The notes under the pieces: model-generated
Seen by the model: only the letters and a program-made list of their open reading frames with translations
Told to the model about the DNA's origin: nothing
Database searches by the model: none
Position numbers and translations under genes: made by a program
Part shown: positions 2,430 to 16,402 of the stretch, one piece after another
Layout: every line of letters starts with the position of its first letter
How positions within the stretch are numbered: the first letter of the stretch is position 1
DNA from: Clostridia bacterium
GTDB lineage: Bacteria > Bacillota > Clostridia > Oscillospirales > CAG-272
NCBI GenBank assembly: GCA_024405755.1
Contig: JAKSOD010000001.1
Span: 8,752-72,751 of the forward strand
DNA length: 64,000 nt
Direction: 5' to 3'

Positions 2430-2917
2430 TTATTTTTCAAATTCAAGATGCAAAAGGTTCCCGTTTTTGCCGACGTAATGACCGCTTCCCGCGAATATCA
2501 ATCCGGTATCTTTGAATAATAGGTAAGGCTCGCCGTACTGAACGTCGACGACGAGATTCCCCTCAAAGTCAACAAATCCCCACTTATTGTAGTCGCGCAC
2601 CGCGATAAGTTTATGTTCCGGGAACACTATGGCTTCGTTATACGGCAGGTCAAGTGCGAGTTCCCGCGCTCGTCGATGTAGCCCCATTTCCGTCCAACCT
2701 CCGCGTCGCAGATCTTGTCGGGGAACGAATAGATTTTCTGATCCCTGCCGTTCAGAAATATGAGCAGGAATACTGCGGCGCATACCAATACGGCGGCACA
2801 GACGGAGATCAGAATTATCAACTTCTTTTTTCGAGAATCGTGCTTTTCTTGAAAGTTTCCAGGATTTTCTTCGTTCATTACGTTGTCAGTCATTTGCGGT
2901 TCCTCCTTTTGAATCAT
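2430..2917 (-). pseudogene. WG-repeat (KWG-type) membrane-anchored protein, frameshifted
   Basis: ORFs 2627..2917 and 2430..2783 are two halves of one gene: '..GRKWGYIDERGN' then '..LALDLPYNEAIVF..NKWGFVDFEGNLVV'. One extra G in the GGG run (plus-strand CCC 2663-2665) would restore 'WGYIDERGELALDL'. Confidence 0.6.
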
Positions 2918-3104
2918 AAAATATTATGATGGCAATTTGTGTAGATCGCTGACTCTCATTATTTAATACAGTAAAAAACAAATGATCTTACACTTTTTGT
3001 TTGAAAAAGAAAAAACACCGATTCATTCGATAATATTTCAAAAACTTTTTGATATTTTGTCAATAGCAGTCTTTCGTATTTACATTTAAATTTGATAAAA
3101 AAGA

Positions 3105-3239
3105 CTAAATACAACAAATGGTGTGTAAAAAAATGACGATAACGAGTTTTTTAACACACCATTGCTTTTTCTGACCGTTTTCATCAATAAAGCTGTAAAC
3201 TACGCAGTAGTGTCCTTTTCTTTCAATTATTGAAGCCAT
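3105..3239 (-). pseudogene. Tyrosine integrase remnant (only the first ~27 codons of the arm-binding N-terminus)
   Basis: 44-codon ORF starting 2 nt after the xis stop. MASIIERKGHYCVVYSFIDENGQKKQW matches the typical integrase N-terminal arm-binding (AP2-like) domain, then diverges into WCVKKLVIVIFLHTICCI*. A 13-bp hairpin (3120-3160) sits at the break. Confidence 0.55.
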
Positions 3240-3642: not shown

Positions 3643-3858
3643 TTAATTATCGAATGGTTCTTTCGTTTCAATAGAAGAACCATTATAATAGAGTTCGCCG
3701 TCTTCATTCATACGAGTCAGATACCTGTAAACAGTGGTACGGCTCACATTCAATTTCTTGGCGAGGTCATTCAGCGAAGGCGAGTAGCCATAGCTCCGTT
3801 TCCAATCATTGACGGTATCGTATATTTCTTTTTTAAGTTCCAAACTCTGAGATCTCAT
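3643..3858 (-). CDS. Small winged-helix regulator resembling the LexA N-terminal DNA-binding domain
   Basis: 71 aa. 'GYSPSLNDLAKKLNVSRTTVYRYLTRMNEDGEL' resembles the LexA_DNA_bind-type wHTH. There is no protease domain. Confidence 0.6.
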   Translation of the reverse strand: MRSQSLELKKEIYDTVNDWKRSYGYSPSLNDLAKKLNVSRTTVYRYLTRMNEDGELYYNGSSIETKEPFDN

Positions 3859-4014: not shown

Positions 4015-4043
4015 TTGAAAAAAAGAAAGACCTGTGTTATAAT
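4015..4043 (+). promoter_or_regulatory. Strong SigA-type promoter (extended -10)
   Basis: TTGAAA 4015-4020, 17 nt, TGtTATAAT (TATAAT 4038-4043). Confidence 0.7.
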
Positions 4044-4069
4044 ATTCGCAAGAACAACAACTGAATAAC

Positions 4070-4199
4070 TTTACCTATTAAGAGTGCGTGAGAGACAAGC
4101 TCGCTGACCGCACAGCAACCTACTGAAAGGCAAGGTGCTAATGCTTGAACGATGGGGATAAATAACAGAACCCCGTCGTGACGATGGGGTTCCTTTTTT
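4070..4199 (+). promoter_or_regulatory. SAM-I (S-box)-like riboswitch candidate with intrinsic terminator expression platform
   Basis: Has 'UUAAGAG', P2 GUGCG(4084-88)/CGCAC(4109-13), GAG/CUC in place of GGG/CCC, 'AGCAACC' (4114-20) and 'AAGGUGCUAAU' (4132-42). The loop CAAGC (4096-4100) is complementary to GCUUG (4143-47). Terminator GAACCCC..GGGGTTC 4168-4192 plus T6. A competing antiterminator pairs 4149-57 with 4171-79. P1 and P4 are atypical. Confidence 0.5.
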
Positions 4200-4240
4200 G
4201 CGCTCTCTTTAGGAATATATTTTTTAGGAGGGCGTTTATT

Positions 4241-4576
4241 ATGCGTCAAATCAAAGATTTAGTTCAGGACAAAGAGAAGGTCTGGGTTTATCTGTCCACA
4301 GATGAAGTCGCTCACGGATTTATCACGAAAGCGATATCCGAAGGGTTTCACTGGTCAAATGGTGAACCAATAAGCGAAACTACAACCGGTTATCTGTTTG
4401 GAGTGCATCGTGATCTGTCGATAGCGCATCTTTCAATGTATATTTGGTGTACTGCGTTTCAATGTCATGGAAAGATACCGGGAACACCGATGTGTATTGA
4501 CTATGAAAAGTACGCTGCCGGAGAGCTTGACTACATCTGTCACGAGCCGCACATCAAAGGTGTAATAACAAACTGA
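4241..4576 (+). CDS. Hypothetical 111-aa protein downstream of the riboswitch candidate
   Basis: The ATG at 4241 is preceded by AGGAGG. MRQIKDLVQDKEKVWVYLSTDEV... No family recognised. Confidence 0.6.
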   Translation: MRQIKDLVQDKEKVWVYLSTDEVAHGFITKAISEGFHWSNGEPISETTTGYLFGVHRDLSIAHLSMYIWCTAFQCHGKIPGTPMCIDYEKYAAGELDYICHEPHIKGVITN

Positions 4577-4585
4577 AATAAATAG

Positions 4586-4630
4586 GGCGATGCCGAGAGA
4601 TAAATTCTTTGGCATCGCTCTATTTTTGAT
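4586..4630. terminator. Bidirectional terminator between convergent genes
   Basis: GCGATGCC(4587-94)..GGCATCGC(4611-18) followed by TCTATTTTTG. The reverse reading is followed by CTATTTATTT. Confidence 0.7.
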
Positions 4631-6006: not shown

Positions 6007-7437
6007 CTAATTTTTGCCGTAGTTTTCGGATTTGAGTTGTATAAGCTGAATATCTTTGACATATAACTCTGTGAGTATATGTTGGTCGGTATCTATAAAG
6101 ATAGACTCAGGATCGGGTTCGTTGTCAAGATCAGAAATCCAATCATCAAGAACACCTGTGAAGATTTCTCCGTCTTTCATCGTAATTTCGACGCGCTTAT
6201 CTTCAAGTGCATCGAAACATTCACTCATATCAATGATATGGATGGCGTCGCCTTTAAGTTTATAAAGGGCATCATATTGTTTTTTGATCTGACCTGCGAT
6301 TGCAATAAAACTATCAATGCCAAACGGTTCGTTAAAATAATGCGTCATTACTTCCGCAATAACCGAAGCAATCTGATAAATGTCATATTCCGGCTTTAAC
6401 TTGGACGCTATGAGTCGGGACTCGCCGTTGTATTCGTCTTTGGGCGCACCCATTTCAAGCAGCCCTACGCAGTCAATGCTGTCTATTGCGGCTTTAACGA
6501 TACTGAAAACTGATGGCTCAGTATTCAGTACTTCTCCGAGTATTTCGGTATTAAGTCTTTGCATCTCTGCCAAATCGGAATATGGGGGATCTGGTTCAAC
6601 TTTGCAGATAATTGATTTTATCTTTTCAAGCTCCATTGGGAGATCTACTTCATCAAGACTTTCAATGTTTGCAACTCGGACTTTCTTTTGATCGCCGTTA
6701 TTTCCGACCGGAACCATAACCATATCTCCGATATGGATAGTCTTATCATCGGTTTGGTAATAATACTGCTTGCCGCCGTACTCAAACTCGCAGCTACACA
6801 ACCTTATAGCTGAATATGATACCTCGTTAAATACATAGAGTTCCGGCATTTCAAGCATTTCCCGAAGATCATCGGAATATTTATCAAGCCATTTATCTCC
6901 TTCGGTTAAGTAACCGGAGGTACGATACTTCTTGTTCAGTTCGTTGACGATTTCGATGTCCCAAGAACCGACATCGGTTATCATCGTCAAATCAATCAAT
7001 ACAGACAAATGAGTGTTTACATTGTTGAGCCAAGCTACCGCTTTTTCGGGAGGTATGCTTTTTTGCAGTCTGCGTAATGTCTTTCCCTCATAGTTTTTCA
7101 GGGTTATATAGACCTTTCCCGTAGCTGACACAGTGATCTTTTGGATACGTTCTTCATCGGGCTCCGGGCAGGGGCCGTAGCATATACCGTTTGAGTCAAG
7201 AGTGATTTTCTTTGGAACACCGTCTGAAAGCGGTAGTGCGCCAGTCTTAGCGGCATCCTGATACGCAGAAATAACGGAATTAACCATTTCGGGATATACA
7301 TACGAGCGAATTATTTCTGAGATATGATACATCTGTGCCGTTGTCAAACCGTGCTTTTCGCACTCTTTCCAAAGCTCAAGCGTTTTTTCAAATTGAGTTT
7401 CCGTCAATGTATATCCCTCCTTATTTTGAAAATCCAA
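6007..7437 (-). CDS. Hypothetical multidomain protein (island operon gene F)
   Basis: 476 aa. Its stop abuts the gene E region (7437/7438). Contains a 'YYYQTDDKTIHIGDMVMVPVGNNGDQKKVRVANI' module, 'LLEMGAPKDEYNGE' (DUF1871-like, from memory) and a C-terminal 'VEITMKDGEIFTGVLDDW' Sm-like stretch. Confidence 0.75.
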   Translation of the reverse strand: MDFQNKEGYTLTETQFEKTLELWKECEKHGLTTAQMYHISEIIRSYVYPEMVNSVISAYQDAAKTGALPLSDGVPKKITLDSNGICYGPCPEPDEERIQKITVSATGKVYITLKNYEGKTLRRLQKSIPPEKAVAWLNNVNTHLSVLIDLTMITDVGSWDIEIVNELNKKYRTSGYLTEGDKWLDKYSDDLREMLEMPELYVFNEVSYSAIRLCSCEFEYGGKQYYYQTDDKTIHIGDMVMVPVGNNGDQKKVRVANIESLDEVDLPMELEKIKSIICKVEPDPPYSDLAEMQRLNTEILGEVLNTEPSVFSIVKAAIDSIDCVGLLEMGAPKDEYNGESRLIASKLKPEYDIYQIASVIAEVMTHYFNEPFGIDSFIAIAGQIKKQYDALYKLKGDAIHIIDMSECFDALEDKRVEITMKDGEIFTGVLDDWISDLDNEPDPESIFIDTDQHILTELYVKDIQLIQLKSENYGKN

Positions 7438-8168: not shown

Positions 8169-9269
8169 TTATTTCAACGGTTTAAGTTGGTTTTTCAAAT
8201 TTTCAATTTTTGAAATTGTATCGGCATAAACCGTAAATGCCTCTACAACCTCTGCATCGTTTTCAAAGGTCGGTCTCATGGCAAATTTCTTATGGATCAT
8301 AAAGACCTTTTCAACCTCTGCAAAGCGAATGGTAATCTGATTGACATTCTGCTTTACGATAATGCCGTCACCGTAGTTCTTATGATTTACCTCAACATTA
8401 AGCAAAGAAATCTCTTTATACGGCTCTATACTCAGTTCCAAATCTCTGATCTCTTTTTCAAGTTCTTCGATTTTCTTTTGACGCTCCGCTGCTTCCTGCT
8501 CCCGAAGTTGTTCTAACTTGTAGGACTTAATGCTTTCTTGCTTTGAGATGTGCGTTAGTCCATCGAAAAGATTATATCCACGACAGCAGTACAAAAAGTC
8601 GAAGGCGAGCAGATGTAAGCTCTCATCCGGATAAAAGTCCCCACTGTATATCAACTCGTGATACTTGTCGATCAAAGTCGGGTGTTCTTTCAGTGCTTCA
8701 ACGATCATGTCGCAAAGGGCATAATAGTTCTTTAATTTGAAGTCTTCACCGGCACCGATGTCCATGCCGAACTCAATGTTCTTTGCAAATTCTTCAGCTT
8801 CACTATATCGGTAGATGTAGTTGTGTTCCGGATCAATGAATGTCATGTAGCAAGATGCGGCATGACGGTCTTGCTTATACTTATAAAAGCGAGGAAATGC
8901 TTTCTGACGGAGTTTCTCTATTTCATCGAGGAATGTGTCCAAATGCTTTTGCTTCAAATCAATGTCGCCGTCATCCGGTGCAAACAATACCTCACGGAAA
9001 AGTCTTTCGACCTCTTCGGGGTATTCCTCAGCCAATTTAACAATTCCGTTTGTGGGTGACACCTGCGCATTGTCGATCATATTGGAACATTCTTTTTTTG
9101 CCTCTTTGAACAGAGAGGAAAAATCCGCCGGTTTATTATCTGAGAACCAAACAGAACGAAATTGCTGTACGGCTCTCCATTTGAATACTTCGTTATGCTC
9201 CGAATCATTAAACAAAGCATAATTGCTTTCGTATCTATTGATAAGTTCATGAAGATTATTTGTGTTCAT
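8169..9269 (-). CDS. Hypothetical protein: helical N-domain, coiled coil, and a small beta domain (gene D)
   Basis: 366 aa. 'EVFKWRAVQQF' N-terminal motif. 'LREQEAAERQKKIEELEKEIRDLE' coiled coil. C-terminal 'VNHKNYGDGIIVKQNVNQITIRFAEVEKVF' resembles the small Tudor/UvrD-C-like beta module. Confidence 0.75.
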   Translation of the reverse strand: MNTNNLHELINRYESNYALFNDSEHNEVFKWRAVQQFRSVWFSDNKPADFSSLFKEAKKECSNMIDNAQVSPTNGIVKLAEEYPEEVERLFREVLFAPDDGDIDLKQKHLDTFLDEIEKLRQKAFPRFYKYKQDRHAASCYMTFIDPEHNYIYRYSEAEEFAKNIEFGMDIGAGEDFKLKNYYALCDMIVEALKEHPTLIDKYHELIYSGDFYPDESLHLLAFDFLYCCRGYNLFDGLTHISKQESIKSYKLEQLREQEAAERQKKIEELEKEIRDLELSIEPYKEISLLNVEVNHKNYGDGIIVKQNVNQITIRFAEVEKVFMIHKKFAMRPTFENDAEVVEAFTVYADTISKIENLKNQLKPLK

Positions 9270-9570: not shown

Positions 9571-10121
9571 TCCTCATCCATTAACATCATTTCTTCAAGC
9601 CAGTCATCAATTTTGCGGTTTTCGTCATCCTTCAGCCGTTTCTGAGCTTCGTATGGAATATCACCGTAATCTGCAACCGGATAGTTTTCTATAACTACTA
9701 ACTTTTTGTTTCGCCGCAGCAACATTTCTTTGGTAAGATCACGCTCTCTCTGACAAGTGATATACCGCTCCGAGCCGTGCCTTGTTTTGATAGTTGCGAC
9801 TGAAATGTCATACGGCGGGTACTTTGATGTTTCAATTAGATTGTTGTGCGTTTTAACCTTGCCTTCGCTGAGCAATCCTGCTTCCTGAATAATACCTTTC
9901 GTATTAACAAGAGGATAAGGGACATCTTTTGCCTTGAACTGCTGTTTGCCGGCAATGGTTCCGATCTTCCACTTGCCGTTATTTGAGATGGGAACGATAA
10001 CCTTTGTGCCGATACGATGAAATGCAGAATTGGAGCGATACCAATATGTTTTCTCATCATCAAACTTTACAAGATAATAGTTGTATCGCTTCTCGAAAAG
10101 CATCTCATCACATCCTCTCAT
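9567..10121 (-). CDS. Hypothetical protein (gene B)
   Basis: The ATG at 10121 overlaps the gene A stop (ATGA). An alternative ATG at 10103 has a GAGAGGA RBS. 'YYLVKFDDEKTYWYRSNSAFHRIGTKVIVPISNNGKWKIGTI' repeats the module seen in gene F. Confidence 0.7.
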   Translation of the reverse strand: MRGCDEMLFEKRYNYYLVKFDDEKTYWYRSNSAFHRIGTKVIVPISNNGKWKIGTIAGKQQFKAKDVPYPLVNTKGIIQEAGLLSEGKVKTHNNLIETSKYPPYDISVATIKTRHGSERYITCQRERDLTKEMLLRRNKKLVVIENYPVADYGDIPYEAQKRLKDDENRKIDDWLEEMMLMDEE

Positions 10122-11485
10122 TTATGGTGTTCGTTATAGTAATCTTCTGCGTCGTAGTAGTCGAAGAAGTCATCATAATGGTCATAGTAGAAGTCTTCTT
10201 CGTTGGAATAATCGTTTACATCGTAAGGATCATCGTCGCTCTTTGATTTCGTGTTTTTCTTCGGAGTGTATGGAACAACCGGATCGCTTCTGTGATCCCA
10301 CACTTCTGTGACTCGACCTTTAACGCAACGTGCGGTAAATATCGTTTTGTTACCGGACTTAAAATCATACAAATTGGCAATATATCTTTCGCCGTTAATC
10401 ATTTCGGAATTATGGCGCACATTGCTTGAAGGAGCGCCCAAAGAAGTGTTTTTGATTTCACTTTCGGACATTCCAACATAAGGCACTCCGTATGTAATGC
10501 GGTCACGATATGCCTTTGCATCAGCTTCGGACTTTTCTTTAAGATATACGTCGTATTCCGCTTTCAGCGTTTTTACAAAGTCATTTACGACTTTATCTTG
10601 CTCGGAAGAAAGATAGGAAAAACGCACCTTATTCATATCATAATAGGCGCTTGAAATATATCCTCGTTCGTAGTCAATATGTGCTTCGCAAAGCAATATA
10701 TAGGCCGACGTATCATGATAGTTCTTTTCTTCAATTTCCTCGAATAACTCTTTTGCCTCTTTGTAGGAGCCGATGTCAACGAGCGACACCGCTTTATCGT
10801 AAGCATTTGCGAGTTTTGAGGTATTCACTGCCGATATTGTAATTAGTCCTGCGATAACCGCACCAAAGATGCAAGCGGTGATAATCCCACTATTACGCTT
10901 TTTCTTGCGAATAGCAGAGAGTTCTTCTTCCGAAAGAAGTTTCAGATAATTTTCTTTCAAATCATGCAGCTTGTTGCATTCTTCGCTTATCAGCTTAATG
11001 ACGGTACTCCATATAATTCCGAGAACAACAAGTCCGCCGCCAAAAAACAGCAAAAATACGAACCAGTAAGCAGTATTCTTATCATCATAAGATTCAACCG
11101 TTGCCCACATTACCAAGCCGGGAATAAGTGAGATAACAAGACCGATGATTATTGAAATAGCAATACTGAATCTCGATGCGTTTCTAAGATTAGGATAATT
11201 CTCTTTGGTTAGCTTCGACGGAACACTAACGGTTGGTATTGTAGAGGGCGATGACTTGACAACGGGTGCTGCTTTAGGGACAGTGTGATATGTTGGAACA
11301 ATATCAGACTCTATATCTTCGATGTCGTCATCATCAAGATCGTCATCATCGGGATCGTCATCAAGTTCTTCGTTGGTTGTTTCTTCAAAGATTTTATAAG
11401 CGATATATTCTTCGTCAAGGGAGGTCTTTCCATCACCGTCAAGGTCGAATAATCCTCCTAAAAAATCGTCATTCTTACTGCTCAT
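10118..11485 (-). CDS. Membrane protein with an N-terminal EF-hand-like loop, three TM segments and an acidic/Tyr-rich tail (gene A)
   Basis: Start MSSKNDD at 11485 with an AAGGTGGTGA RBS. 'DLDGDGKTSLDEE' is a canonical DxDxDGxxxxxE loop. TM segments around residues 110-170 and 205-225. C-terminal 'EEDFYYDHYDDFFDYYDAEDYY'. Confidence 0.75.
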   Translation of the reverse strand: MSSKNDDFLGGLFDLDGDGKTSLDEEYIAYKIFEETTNEELDDDPDDDDLDDDDIEDIESDIVPTYHTVPKAAPVVKSSPSTIPTVSVPSKLTKENYPNLRNASRFSIAISIIIGLVISLIPGLVMWATVESYDDKNTAYWFVFLLFFGGGLVVLGIIWSTVIKLISEECNKLHDLKENYLKLLSEEELSAIRKKKRNSGIITACIFGAVIAGLITISAVNTSKLANAYDKAVSLVDIGSYKEAKELFEEIEEKNYHDTSAYILLCEAHIDYERGYISSAYYDMNKVRFSYLSSEQDKVVNDFVKTLKAEYDVYLKEKSEADAKAYRDRITYGVPYVGMSESEIKNTSLGAPSSNVRHNSEMINGERYIANLYDFKSGNKTIFTARCVKGRVTEVWDHRSDPVVPYTPKKNTKSKSDDDPYDVNDYSNEEDFYYDHYDDFFDYYDAEDYYNEHHK

Positions 11486-11549
11486 ACAAATCACCACCTT
11501 ACTTATGACAGTATAAGTATAACATCACATGTGTACTATATAACGGACT

Positions 11550-12086: not shown

Positions 12087-14516
12087 TCACTTTATCTTAG
12101 CAAGTACATCCTCAAACTTGGCGTAGTTTACCTTCACACCATCATCGAGATCAATGCGAATCATTTGGTCGGCAAGGTGGTGGATTTTTTCTTCGTAAAC
12201 ACGGATTTCGTTTGCTTGATCCTGTAATTTTTGGAGTTGCTTATTGAGTTTTACACGATCACCAGTGGATGCAGAATTGATGCGCTGTTCCAAATCCGCA
12301 ATTGCAGTACGGTAACGGCTCTGCTGTTCGTGAACATAGTCGGTACGCATACGGGCAATGGTATCCGGCTGATAACGATGCATATAAATCAGTGCCTTGA
12401 AGCCATTTTTCTTGCCACTGTCGAAGAGCCAATAAATCGGGCGCTTCTGATAAATCTTTAGATGGTCAGAATAGAAATCATTCAAGAAATAGTTGCGGAT
12501 AACATCACGAGGAGAACCTTTACCGCCAAGTGCATCTGCAATAAACCTGAGATTTTCTTCTAATGTCTGGGGACCATAAACGATTTCAACCCATTTGATA
12601 AAGCGTCCAGTGATGTCATCATCAAAATAATCATCGTCGCAGATTGGGATGATATTGTCCTTGTCTGCCGGGAAAGAAAGATATTTTGATGTATCCCAAT
12701 CTCCTCCTGCATAGGCAAGACCTTCGCAGTCAAGGGAATAACGTCCAAACATACAGCCAACAGCATAGGAAATCAAACTACGAATATCGCGCACAAGATC
12801 AGCTTTGCGAACGGTTACATTTTTATCATCGACATCAGCTATTACTTCATTTTGCAAACCGTATATATCAATAAAGATTCTGTTAAGTTCTTCTTCATTA
12901 GATTTGAGTTGTTGAAATCTGCGTTCAGTTGTTGCACACCACATCATATAGGCTGACTGAATGCTTGTTTCAGGATTTTCTTTTTCACAATGATGGAATT
13001 GCTTTGTATAAAGACAATTCTTTACAAGTGGATGACATTTGAAATCCCATGATGTTTCAAATGAATCCCAATCTTCTTTTGAAATTGCTATACATGAGTC
13101 GACAAGTCTTTCAATTACAGTTCTGCGATCTTTATCGATTATTACGGGCATAGATTTTATTGTGCCGACCTCATAATTCATTGTTTGACTCAGAGTTCGG
13201 ATTAAAACTTGCATAATGCTTGAATTACAAAGAGCCAAAAGATAAAGCAGATCAGTGTTAGAAAAAATTGAGCAGCCAGCAACATCGAAAGCAGAGCCAA
13301 CAGGTACATATCTCATGGATAAACCGCCACTGGTAACTTTTGACCAAGTGATTGACTCTTTGAAATATAGTTCTCTTGAAGGTAAATGGTTGCCAACGGT
13401 AAGAAGATAATCATAAGATGGTTTATCAAACTTGATTAGATATTCAATGTTTCCATACCATTTTCTAAAACTTCCACCTTTATTATACGGAATATACCTT
13501 TTTCCTCCATCTTTATGAAGATCTTCAAGGCTTTGACTGTGCAATGACACTTGATTAAAGTCAACTTCCGACCATAGTCTTAACATTTTGTTGTTGTCTC
13601 CTGTTGCAAGTCCTTGTCTTGGTTTTGCAACAGAATCAATTACTGGATTGTTTGCAAATATCTCAATAATATGGTCACTAATCCAATAAGCAAATGGACT
13701 CCCAGCAATTTCATGAAATACATCTTGTTTTGTGTTGTATTGCGAAGTATGTTTGAGAAACAATTCTTCTTTTCCTGTTTGGGTTGTTGGCTCGATTAGC
13801 CATGAATACACACCAGTAATATTCTTTATGAATTGTTTTCTGATGACAAAACTTGTGGTTTGAACAACTTCTCCTCCAATTTCTTCAAAAGCATGTGCGC
13901 CGAGATGCGCCATATTTACTACATTATCATGTAAAAGTTTTGAACGCAGTTGCTCAAAACTTGATAAGAACATCCACGAATGTTGTGTGATCATTGCTTG
14001 AAAATAGCTACGATTTGTTAATGAATTACATTTTTCAATGAAGCACGCATATAAATCCGCTTTGCTGTCAGCATAATACTTTTTGACAAAGTTCAGAAGT
14101 TTAGCACTCATTCCTGACGATCCCATATATGGCGGATTCGTCACAACAGCATGATATTTTTGAACTAAGGCTTCTGCAACGTTTATTATCTCTTGCAAAC
14201 GGGCAGATGCTTCTTGCTCACCATGAATATCTAATGTAATCTGACCTTCGGAAACACAACGAGGAACAGCAAATCTTCTGAGCAAATCCCAATCACACGG
14301 GGTAATATTCAAAATTGAGCCGTATTCTTTGGCATCGTTCATTTCGTCGATCAAGCGGATGGTTTGCTTTACCGCTTCGTCATATTCTTCTTCCGTCAGT
14401 TCCAAACCCATATCATGAAGCGGTGCGGTTGTAATACCGTTGCTTTCGACGATAGAATACACATGGGGCTGAATATTGCGACTGAAAATACGGCGGTCAT
14501 ACTGTCTTGCTTTCAT
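12087..14516 (-). pseudogene. pglX: PglX-type (BREX-1 family) N6-adenine DNA methyltransferase, 5'-truncated
   Basis: 'VVTNPPYMGSSGM' (motif IV) and the C-terminal 'RPIYWLFDSGKKNGFKALIYMHRY...DDGVKVNYAKFEDVLAKI' are typical of PglX. Only ~140 aa precede NPPY from MKARQYDRR, and no FxGxG/'DPACGSG' motif I is present. Sequence upstream of 14516 is unrelated. Confidence 0.7.
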
Positions 14517-14583
14517 CCGTATATCTGCTGAGAATATCCAGTATTGCCGGCAGCAACATCCTCTTTGGTGCATTTGCATACAT
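14497..14583 (-). pseudogene. 28-codon remnant resembling the N-terminus of a WYL/BrxR-type HTH regulator
   Basis: A perfect AGGAGG RBS (14591-96) precedes MYANAPKRMLLPAILDILSRYTDESKTV*. The pattern K..LL..L.IL..YTDE matches N-termini of clostridial WYL regulators (from memory). It overlaps the truncated pglX ATG. Confidence 0.3.
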
Positions 14584-14747
14584 AAGCGATCCTCCTGTGC
14601 AAGTCCTTGAACTGTATATATTATAACAACTGCTATGAGTAAAATATGTCCCATAGTTATTGTAGCATATCTTTCTCAAATATTCAAGATTGTACGAATG
14701 ATTTGCTGAACAAGTATTATGTATCCTGTTGCTTTCGCAATGAGCAT

Positions 14748-15997: not shown

Positions 15998-16402
15998 CAA
16001 AATTAGCAAGGTGGTAGAGAGGGTGCCTGTTTTAGCGATTAGCAAAACGCCATTTTCAATTAGCAAAAAATCGAATTTTGCTAATTGCGATTAGCACGAA
16101 ATCACGAAATCGTTATCAGAGATAAAGAAAAACACGGGAAATCGAAAATCGAAATTCCGTGATAATAGGTGGCGTCCCCGGGCGGATTCGAACCGCCGGC
16201 CTTTCGCTTAGGAGGCGAACGCTCTATCCTGCTGAGCTACGGAGACATTTATGAAAAAATGCAGTATTTACAAGGGTTTTTGGCTTTTTGCGTTCTGCAT
16301 TTTTTGTTTGTTCAGTGCGCTTTGATTAACTAATTGACGATTTTGCTAATCGTTTTTCCTGTTTTTGAGTAACAGGGCGCGAGTGCCCGAAATTAGCAAA
16401 TC
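15998..16402. repeat. Cluster of ATTAGCAA 8-mers (both orientations) flanking tRNA-Arg
   Basis: Perfect forward copies at 16002, 16038, 16059 and 16392. Perfect inverted copies at 16078 and 16343. A 7/8 copy at 16090. Also tandem ACGAAATC x2 (16095-16112) and GAAATC-like x3 (16137-16160). Confidence 0.6.
16170..16246 (-). tRNA. tRNA-Arg (anticodon CCT)
   Basis: Reverse complement is GTCTCCGTAGCTCAGCAGGATAGAGCGTTCGCCTCCTAAGCGAAAGGCCGGCGGTTCGAATCCGCCCGGGGACGCCA. It folds as a cloverleaf with anticodon loop CUCCUAA, a TTCGAATC T-loop and an encoded CCA. Confidence 0.9.

Follow-up and report, generated by a model that had tools for sequence, protein, structure and literature searches.

The window analyzed here is a stretch of 64,000 nucleotides (nt) from the genome of a Clostridia bacterium (GTDB lineage Bacteria; Bacillota; Clostridia; Oscillospirales; CAG-272), corresponding to positions 8,752–72,751 of contig JAKSOD010000001.1 in assembly GCA_024405755.1. 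Positions 4015–4627 of the window very probably constitute a self-contained, horizontally mobile expression cassette, which comprises a promoter, an S-adenosylmethionine type I (SAM-I) riboswitch that lacks helix P4 and follows OFF logic, the gene of an orphan protein of 111 amino acids (aa), and a terminator. Judged by its covariation and conserved core, the riboswitch is a genuine SAM-I of the known P4-less subtype, sound and ordinary in itself. The comparison of homologous loci, designated below by L numbers, adds three new points. The P4-less aptamer is coupled to an orphan gene family in a manner that is deep and near-obligate; the distribution is patchy and mobile, with a ‘moron’ position beside immunity repressors; and a conserved two-state module in the leader, directed against the Shine-Dalgarno (SD) sequence, suggests dual transcriptional and translational gating. 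Literature searches turned up no earlier description of a SAM riboswitch carried by a prophage or an integrative and conjugative element (ICE), nor of the 111-aa protein.

The P4-less SAM-I aptamer

The aptamer spans positions 4072–4158 of the forward strand, on which the promoter, the expression platform, the hairpin that follows it and the gene also lie. The Rfam SAM-I model (RF00162) aligns with this segment over its full span (model positions 1–108) and scores 60.2 bits (E = 1.9e-11), the gathering score being 44.4; homologous leaders score 45–65 bits with the same model. An initial annotation, made from the sequence alone, had proposed a SAM-I riboswitch here, with a promoter, S-box hallmarks and a terminator/antiterminator pair; each element was found at, or within 1–2 nt of, the coordinates it had been given, and the covariance search upheld the SAM-I assignment. 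P1 (4072–4079/4151–4158) consists of 7–8 pairs with one A·G mismatch. It leads through J1/2 (AAGA, 4080–4083; the AAGAG motif occupies 4080–4084) into P2a, GUGCG/CGCAC (4084–4088/4109–4113), and P2b, GAG/CUC (4092–4094/4100–4102), between which GA at 4090–4091 and GA at 4106–4107 form the G·A/A·G pairs of a kink-turn (K-turn), in the right register and invariant in the alignment, as sequence-level evidence for that motif. P3 (4114–4124/4129–4139) is closed by a GAAA loop and contains GCAACC (4115–4120) and GGUGCUAAU (4134–4142). The P2 loop, CAAG (4096–4099), pairs with CUUG of J3/4 (4144–4147) to form the pseudoknot. P4 is missing, all 17 P4 model positions being deleted in the RF00162 alignment, which leaves a three-way and not a four-way junction. 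The initial annotation had regarded both P1 and P4 as non-canonical; this is correct for P4, but P1 is essentially canonical. The filing under SAM-I is retained, as a P4-less subtype, because P4 is not strictly defining: natural sequences of the family include P4-less members (PMC12714719).

An alignment of 28 related aptamers supports this fold. The intended P4-less fold with the pseudoknot leaves 92.9% of the cells paired, versus 28–42% when the partners are slid, and 17 double-sided pair changes were counted against 5.8 ± 1.5 in shuffled alignments, with none of 500 shuffles reaching 17. The nucleotides of the K-turn and of the core do not vary, and covariation is found in P1, P2, P3 and the pseudoknot. 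In the pseudoknot it extends to all four pairs, which are fully compensated in L024 (UGUC/GGCA) and in a metK leader (CAGG/CCUG); the pairing of the loop with GCUUG put forward by the initial annotation is borne out. The same holds for the proposed compensatory change of GGG/CCC to GAG/CUC in P2b, which is genuine, the pair being A-U in 14 sequences and G-C in the other 14. The SAM-contact positions of the solved SAM-I structure, as reported by Montange and Batey (2006), are the A-U/U-A pairs of P1, the G of AAGAG in J1/2, and GCAACC and GGUGC in P3. All of these nucleotides are present in the window, and they are invariant or nearly so in the 28 aptamers with the exception of L023 and L027.

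Upstream of the aptamer lies a sigma-70-type promoter (4015–4043) composed of TTGAAA, a 17-nt spacer and a TG-extended TATAAT, with 11 of 12 consensus matches and the upstream TG present. Promoter sequences differ between loci and show no conservation; therefore, the conserved cassette begins at the aptamer.

Coupling of the aptamer to an orphan gene family

The leader precedes a gene (4241–4576, stop codon at 4574–4576) that encodes the 111-aa orphan protein, predicted to be of the alpha/beta type. Close relatives of the product fall into six clusters of a 5.8-billion-protein collection, and a profile search retrieved 337 clusters at E ≤ 1e-3 from 1.84 billion representatives. The P4-less aptamer is located directly upstream of the gene in 35 of 37 homologous loci, at protein identities down to 24%. 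This pairing, together with the second leader module that follows the terminator, was missed by the initial annotation. Close homologues with enough upstream DNA all carry the aptamer, with scores of 57–60 bits. Among distant relatives (24–38% identity; metagenome-assembled genomes of rumen and gut Clostridia, species-representative genomes) an RF00162 match above threshold lies directly upstream in 22 of 24, and a 23rd, L024, has a sub-threshold copy, the one with the fully compensated pseudoknot. Six further aptamer-bearing homologues score 75–105 bits with our own model, R1; five of them belong to other genera of the class and the sixth to the genus itself. The aptamer RNA is nearly invariant while the proteins fall to 24–45% identity. 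The family itself is sparsely distributed: 6 of 401 genomes of the class carry a member, as do 2 of 38 species of the genus, and none was found in 400 other sampled genomes of the phylum.

Two members of the family occur in other surroundings. The homologue in L029 (350–610) has a strong TTGAAA...TATAAT promoter and an unrelated leader, and a separate canonical SAM-I (83 bits) is located 5 kb away. In L047 (1492–1767; G000:C133:1994–2266), from the window's own genome, a distant 91-aa paralogue, which matches the family profile at E 3.5e-28, is flanked by a glycoside-hydrolase-like gene and argG and has no riboswitch. Paralogues of this type are absent from all but one other genome of the genus.

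Ligand identity and the loss of P4

The window's own genome (2.12 Mb) contains only two RF00162 matches, the window aptamer and one directly upstream of metK. The latter (G000:C123:13380–13465, equivalent to L039 1501–1586, minus strand) is 86 nt long, scores 71.6 bits and is likewise P4-less; its leader has a plain terminator and no SD hairpin module. A single SAM-I match was found in 23 of 24 same-genus genomes, almost all of these matches being 84–92 nt long, and the matches in other families of the order are 95–108 nt long. A P4-less aptamer on metK provides strong comparative evidence that the P4-less architecture senses SAM in this lineage, and SAM is the likely ligand of the window aptamer because the metK leader of the host has the same P4-less form. 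The loss of P4 is itself not new, since natural P4-less aptamers are documented: P4 deletion is the main axis of variation among natural SAM-I sequences, one group of Actinomycetota has little or no P4, and SAM aptamers without P4 can function, at reduced affinity, with some designed P4-less aptamers responding to SAM (PMC12714719).

The initial annotation had also considered a SAM-I/IV-like variant or a different ligand class. The variant assignment was rejected, as the clan competition performed with cmscan retains RF00162 over SAM-I/IV (RF01725) and SAM-IV (RF00634). No partner was found for PK-2, the pairing of the P3 loop with sequence 3′ of P1; the P3 loops are unconserved, and the 3′ side of P1 is the antiterminator/terminator. 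The presence of the SAM-contact nucleotides and the identical architecture of the metK leader speak against a different ligand class.

The leaders of L023 (5818–5904) and L027 (5822–5908), which contain GCUUCC, have lower scores (52.9 and 45.3 bits) and are both situated just downstream of tRNA genes. They may represent a sub-clade that has altered specificity or is degenerating.

Expression platform and control of transcription

The 3′ strand of P1, CGAUGGGG (4150–4157), is complementary to CCCCGUCG (4171–4178), and the resulting antiterminator (4150–4178) excludes both P1 and the terminator. The stability of this duplex is −17.3 kcal/mol in the window, with a mean of −14.6 kcal/mol over 25 leaders. 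The intrinsic terminator (4168–4199) comprises an 11-bp stem, GAACCCCGUCG/CGAUGGGGUUC, closed by a UGA loop (4168–4192) and followed by CUUUUUU, the U-run extending to 4199. Its stem exhibits compensatory changes between loci, for example CAAUCCC/GGGAUUG in L006, and it is more stable than the antiterminator in 19 of the 25 leaders. The P1 3′ strand CGAUGGGG recurs as the 3′ arm of the terminator; therefore, the first copy can pair with 4171–4178 as an antiterminator. This repeated-strand layout of antiterminator and terminator is the classical S-box arrangement. A first tier of control, predicted to act on transcription, is thus established by sequence and by comparison of the leaders.

In the proposed mechanism, bound SAM would lock P1 (4072–4079 with 4151–4158), which would leave 4171–4178 free to enter the terminator (4168–4192 and the U-run), and transcription would stop before the gene. 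At low SAM, the P1 3′ strand would pair with 4171–4178 as the antiterminator and RNA polymerase would read through. The 111-aa protein is probably made only when the SAM pool is low, and production at low SAM is the one firm clue to its role.

The unit probably ends with a second terminator at 4587–4627, GCGAUGCC...GGCAUCGC followed by UCUAUUUUU, which would close the monocistronic unit and is common to convergent genes. The automated terminator scan passed over it because its loop is 16 nt long. Two other leaders have unusual platforms. In L016 (approximately 2912–3205), about 300 nt separate the 5′ and 3′ arms of the terminator; this segment is hairpin-rich and looks like a small inserted element that splits the expression platform. 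The leader of L032 (5861–6010) has no terminator, carries a hairpin of anti-SD and SD strands directly after the aptamer, and contains a 16-nt insertion in P3; control at this locus may be purely translational.

A conserved SD-masking hairpin after the terminator

The segment between the U-run and the start codon forms an SD-sequestering hairpin (4200–4235; −15.0 kcal/mol in the window), in which the anti-SD strand GCGCUCUCUU and a UAGG box (4200–4214) pair with AGGAGGGCG(U); the SD sequence, AGGAGG, is at 4226–4231. The hairpin is present in all 25 distinct tails, with a mean minimum free energy (MFE) of −12.1 kcal/mol and a mean z of −3.5, and the SD core is fully paired in 24 of them. The outer pairs of the hairpin covary (GCGC/GGCG, GCAC/GUGC, GCUC/GAGC, GCCC/GGGU).

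The anti-SD strand with its UAGG box has a second complement in the 5′ half of the aptamer at 4074–4088, which comprises the P1 5′ strand, AAGAG and the start of P2. This alternative duplex has an energy of −16.5 kcal/mol in the window and a mean of −15.2 kcal/mol, compared with −5.2 kcal/mol for shuffled strands. Cognate pairs of anti-SD strand and aptamer surpass non-cognate ones (−15.2 vs −14.2 kcal/mol, permutation p = 0.00025), and the complementarity covaries into the P1 5′ strand: CCAUA occurs with UGUGG/UAUGG (L023/L027), CUAUC with GGUAG (L033), and ACCUAUA with UAUAGGU (L012). In 18 of the 25 leaders, that of the window included, the MFE structure of the full-length, ligand-free RNA has the anti-SD strand paired with the aptamer and keeps the SD free; in the other seven the SD-free state lies 0.6–8 kcal/mol from the MFE.

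We infer from these alternative pairings a second, translational tier of SAM control. In read-through RNA the anti-SD strand (4200–4214) would mask the SD (4226–4231). In ligand-free RNA it would instead pair with the 5′ half of the aptamer and release the SD, whereas in SAM-bound RNA the aptamer would hold its own 5′ half, the SD would stay masked, and transcripts that escape termination would remain untranslatable.

The 111-aa orphan protein

Searches of Pfam, NCBIfam, PHROGs and PADLOC gave no consistent match for the 111-aa protein or for 60 family members; the family shows scattered single profile matches, to TusA, MORN_2, Imm6 and PDC-M10A. A hidden Markov model search of PDB sequences returned 0 matches, and no relative of the protein was found among the IMG/VR viral contigs. 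An AlphaFold (AF2) model based on 29 homologues has a predicted local distance difference test (pLDDT) value of 94, a predicted template modeling (pTM) score of 0.86, and the element order beta-alpha-beta-beta-alpha-beta-alpha. Foldseek comparison of this model with the PDB produced no significant match (best E 0.62, template modeling (TM) score ≤ 0.28), and likewise none with a first model of pLDDT 84. A BFVD search with that first model yielded weak matches to uncharacterized phage proteins alone (best E 9e-3, not significant). The statement in the initial annotation that the gene is not a recognizable Met/Cys/SAM gene agrees with these profile, PDB and fold searches.

Only four alignment columns are invariant, F27, A31, G35 and D87, and a DYEKY..G..DY motif is nearly so; none of the invariant columns looks like a catalytic set. 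Purifying selection on the protein is clear across 29 aligned homologues. A DNA-mimic anti-restriction protein was considered and rejected, the isoelectric points of the family ranging from 4.7 to 9.1. The few invariant residues and the range of isoelectric points indicate that the protein is probably neither an enzyme nor a DNA mimic. Our best guess is that it serves the element as a binding or regulatory factor when SAM is depleted, be it by methionine starvation or by SAM-destroying invaders. The gene is monocistronic, and no conserved operon partner was found.

Two other orphan cargo proteins of the island, encoded at 6007–7437 (476 aa) and 8169–9269 (366 aa) of the window, have homologues near the cassette in L001, L014, L031 and L034. 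The association is loose and recurrent, with no fixed order or strand.

Mobile setting of the cassette

The gene belongs to the accessory content of phages, ICEs and defence islands in Clostridia of the rumen and gut. Close copies of the cassette adjoin the master or immunity repressors of otherwise unrelated elements: HTH_3 with ImmA, an S24 LexA-like repressor, or the LexA-N-like winged helix-turn-helix (wHTH) protein of the window. The last, a divergent 71-aa regulator of the island (3643–3858, reverse strand; HTH_11, HTH_29 and other matches), provides context and lies outside the switch. Other copies are near McrBC and WYL genes or in a phage replication-terminase region. On a phage-like contig (L006, 830–4251), a group of SAM-related phage genes converges on the cassette: phosphoadenosine phosphosulfate (PAPS) reductase, a ParB_N-N6_N4 methyltransferase, a 260-aa protein in which SAM synthetase is represented by its N-terminal domain alone (E 5.5e-12), and a small terminase.

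The window island extends roughly from a truncated integrase (3105–3239) to a tRNA-Arg (16170–16246); no convincing attL/attR direct repeats were found for it. The patchy distribution and the element repressors beside close copies support the mobile island proposed by the initial annotation. That annotation had also placed the gene next to a SAM-dependent methyltransferase remnant. A remnant of the Eco57I/PglX type does exist (12087–14654), but it is not adjacent, being about 7.5 kb and six genes away from the cassette. An open reading frame of 459 aa in the window (10118–11497) resembles the Csm6 6H domain, with a match below threshold (E 3.8e-4).

Alternative explanations

The repeated strand also permits a switch of the opposite sign. 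The first CGAUGGGG copy and CCCCGUCG would then constitute the missing P4, the second CGAUGGGG copy, in the 3′ arm of the terminator, would be the true 3′ strand of P1 in a four-way junction, and SAM would break the terminator so that the gene is ON at high SAM. The Rfam model itself chose such a four-way alignment in six loci (L010, L012, L014, L017, L018 and L028; 115–118-nt matches, 58–65 bits), and the two strand copies are near-identical in many leaders. The six matches were rejected as P4-containing relatives, the model having absorbed the antiterminator hairpin as ‘P4’ and the 3′ arm of the terminator as the 3′ strand of P1. However, P1 is as stable or more stable with the first copy in 24 of 25 leaders (18 better, 6 equal), the lone apparent exception, L024, being a parsing error, and only the first copy fits P1 where the copies have diverged (−9.1 vs −6.0 kcal/mol in L023, −6.3 vs −4.6 in L027, and −7.2 vs −5.2 in L010). 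In the window the ‘P4’ would have a 13-nt loop, and the model favors the alignment that lacks P4; as the metK leader shows, aptamers of this lineage are normally P4-less; and similarity of these strands is inherent to every S-box terminator/antiterminator design. An ON switch is for these reasons highly improbable, and the preference of P1 for the first copy combined with the stability of the terminator makes a P4-less OFF switch the supported reading. It is more improbable still, to the point of being scarcely credible, that the island is a gene graveyard in which riboswitch and reading frame are non-functional relics. The island does carry a truncated integrase and a truncated methyltransferase, yet promoter, aptamer, terminator, SD and reading frame show no damage, copies of the aptamer in intact elements match it exactly or almost exactly, and the purifying selection noted above bears on the protein itself.

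The points that weigh against a two-tier OFF switch responding to SAM concern the family, the ligand and the second tier. No riboswitch precedes the gene in two of the homologues, L029 and the own-genome paralogue L047. Aptamers that have lost P4 reportedly bind SAM with lower affinity (Heppell 2011, as cited in PMC12714719). L023 and L027 carry GCUUCC for GCAACC at the ligand-contact site, a difference that falls on positions A45/A46. This substitution, the missing P4 and the regulation of a gene that is not a Met/SAM gene could all be accommodated by an aptamer that senses S-adenosylhomocysteine or a different adenosyl compound, a kind of change seen in variant subgroups of other riboswitch classes. 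Such a change of ligand is nonetheless very unlikely, as the window and 25 other leaders keep every conserved RF00162 core position (AAGAG, GCAACC, GGUGC and the A-U/U-A pairs of P1) and the same architecture controls metK in the host. The second tier is more open to question. The complementarity of the anti-SD strand to the aptamer is partly automatic because AAGAG of J1/2 resembles the SD, AAGGAG, and any anti-SD strand matches both; the cognate advantage is only about 1 kcal/mol; and the SD stays masked in the MFE of 7 of the 25 leaders. There is consequently an appreciable, if minority, chance that the switch has one tier, the hairpin after the terminator being a constitutive translational damper or an mRNA-stabilizing structure and its match to the aptamer a by-product of that resemblance. 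Against this, the complementarity continues past AAGAG into the P1 5′ strand, where it covaries (L023/L027, L033, L012), and reaches P2 (GCGU with GCGC in L028); the cognate pairing is favored in the permutation test; and with its SD masked at all times the gene could scarcely be expressed.

Comparison with known systems

The window switch shares with the SAM-I/S-box leaders (RF00162; yitJ and metI of B. subtilis, metF of T. tengcongensis) P1, the AAGAG J1/2, the K-turn in P2, the pseudoknot between the P2 loop and J3/4, the GCAACC/GGUGC pocket in P3, and the OFF logic of terminator, antiterminator and anti-antiterminator. It differs from them in having no P4, and hence a three-way junction, in controlling an orphan protein of mobile elements rather than Met/Cys/SAM genes, and in the added, conserved SD-sequestering module after the terminator. 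Riboswitches that act at two levels are known: that of E. coli lysC affects translation and RNase E-mediated decay, and some leaders use one hairpin both as terminator and as SD sequestor. The arrangement proposed here is similar in that one aptamer would act at two levels, but its two platforms are physically separate, and the second would operate at long range, the anti-SD strand pairing with the aptamer's own 5′ half.

Mobile-element riboswitches that control accessory functions and not metabolism have a counterpart in the phiCD630 prophages of C. difficile, where cyclic di-GMP type I (c-di-GMP-I) riboswitches control type I antitoxin RNAs; SAM-I in C. difficile precedes only genes of Met/SAM metabolism and transport (PMC11477304). 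Both the ligand, SAM, and the output, an orphan protein, distinguish the window switch from the phiCD630 riboswitches. The natural and designed P4-less SAM-I aptamers already described (PMC12714719) resemble the window aptamer in that P4 is deleted and the rest of the core kept. The P4-less group of that study is, in the Rfam alignment, actinomycete, whereas the aptamers described here are from rumen and gut Clostridia, on the metK of the host and on a mobile cassette. SAM-I/IV and SAM-IV belong to the same clan, have the same ligand-binding core and no P4 inside the junction. They replace P4 by the PK-2 subdomain, formed by the P3 loop and the 3′ tail, for which the window family has no partner, and unlike theirs its P3 loops vary freely (GAAA, ACAA, AAAU, and the 16-nt insert of L032).

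Implications

The textbook role of SAM-I riboswitches is to regulate methionine, cysteine and SAM metabolism. In the present case, a SAM-I is hard-wired, in at least 35 independent loci, to an unnamed protein family with a confidently predicted fold that has no solved relative, and riboswitch and gene travel together among prophages, ICEs and defence islands. A riboswitch tells in which physiological condition its gene is needed; with a SAM riboswitch upstream, the orphan family therefore gains a testable context, low SAM. If confirmed, an anti-SD element that pairs with either the SD or the 5′ half of the aptamer would be a compact natural design by which one aptamer gates both transcription and translation.

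The cassette suggests that mobile elements monitor the SAM pool of their host. It is conceivable, though on balance we consider it rather unlikely, that this two-tier SAM riboswitch serves mobile elements of gut and rumen Clostridia as a dedicated alarm, set off when the SAM pool of the host collapses through methionine starvation or through invading phages that destroy SAM in order to disable the restriction and BREX systems dependent on it, and that the elements respond by deploying a small protein of unseen fold as a defence, restriction-alleviation or lysogeny-decision factor. If so, this would be a metabolite riboswitch that serves genetic conflict and not metabolism.

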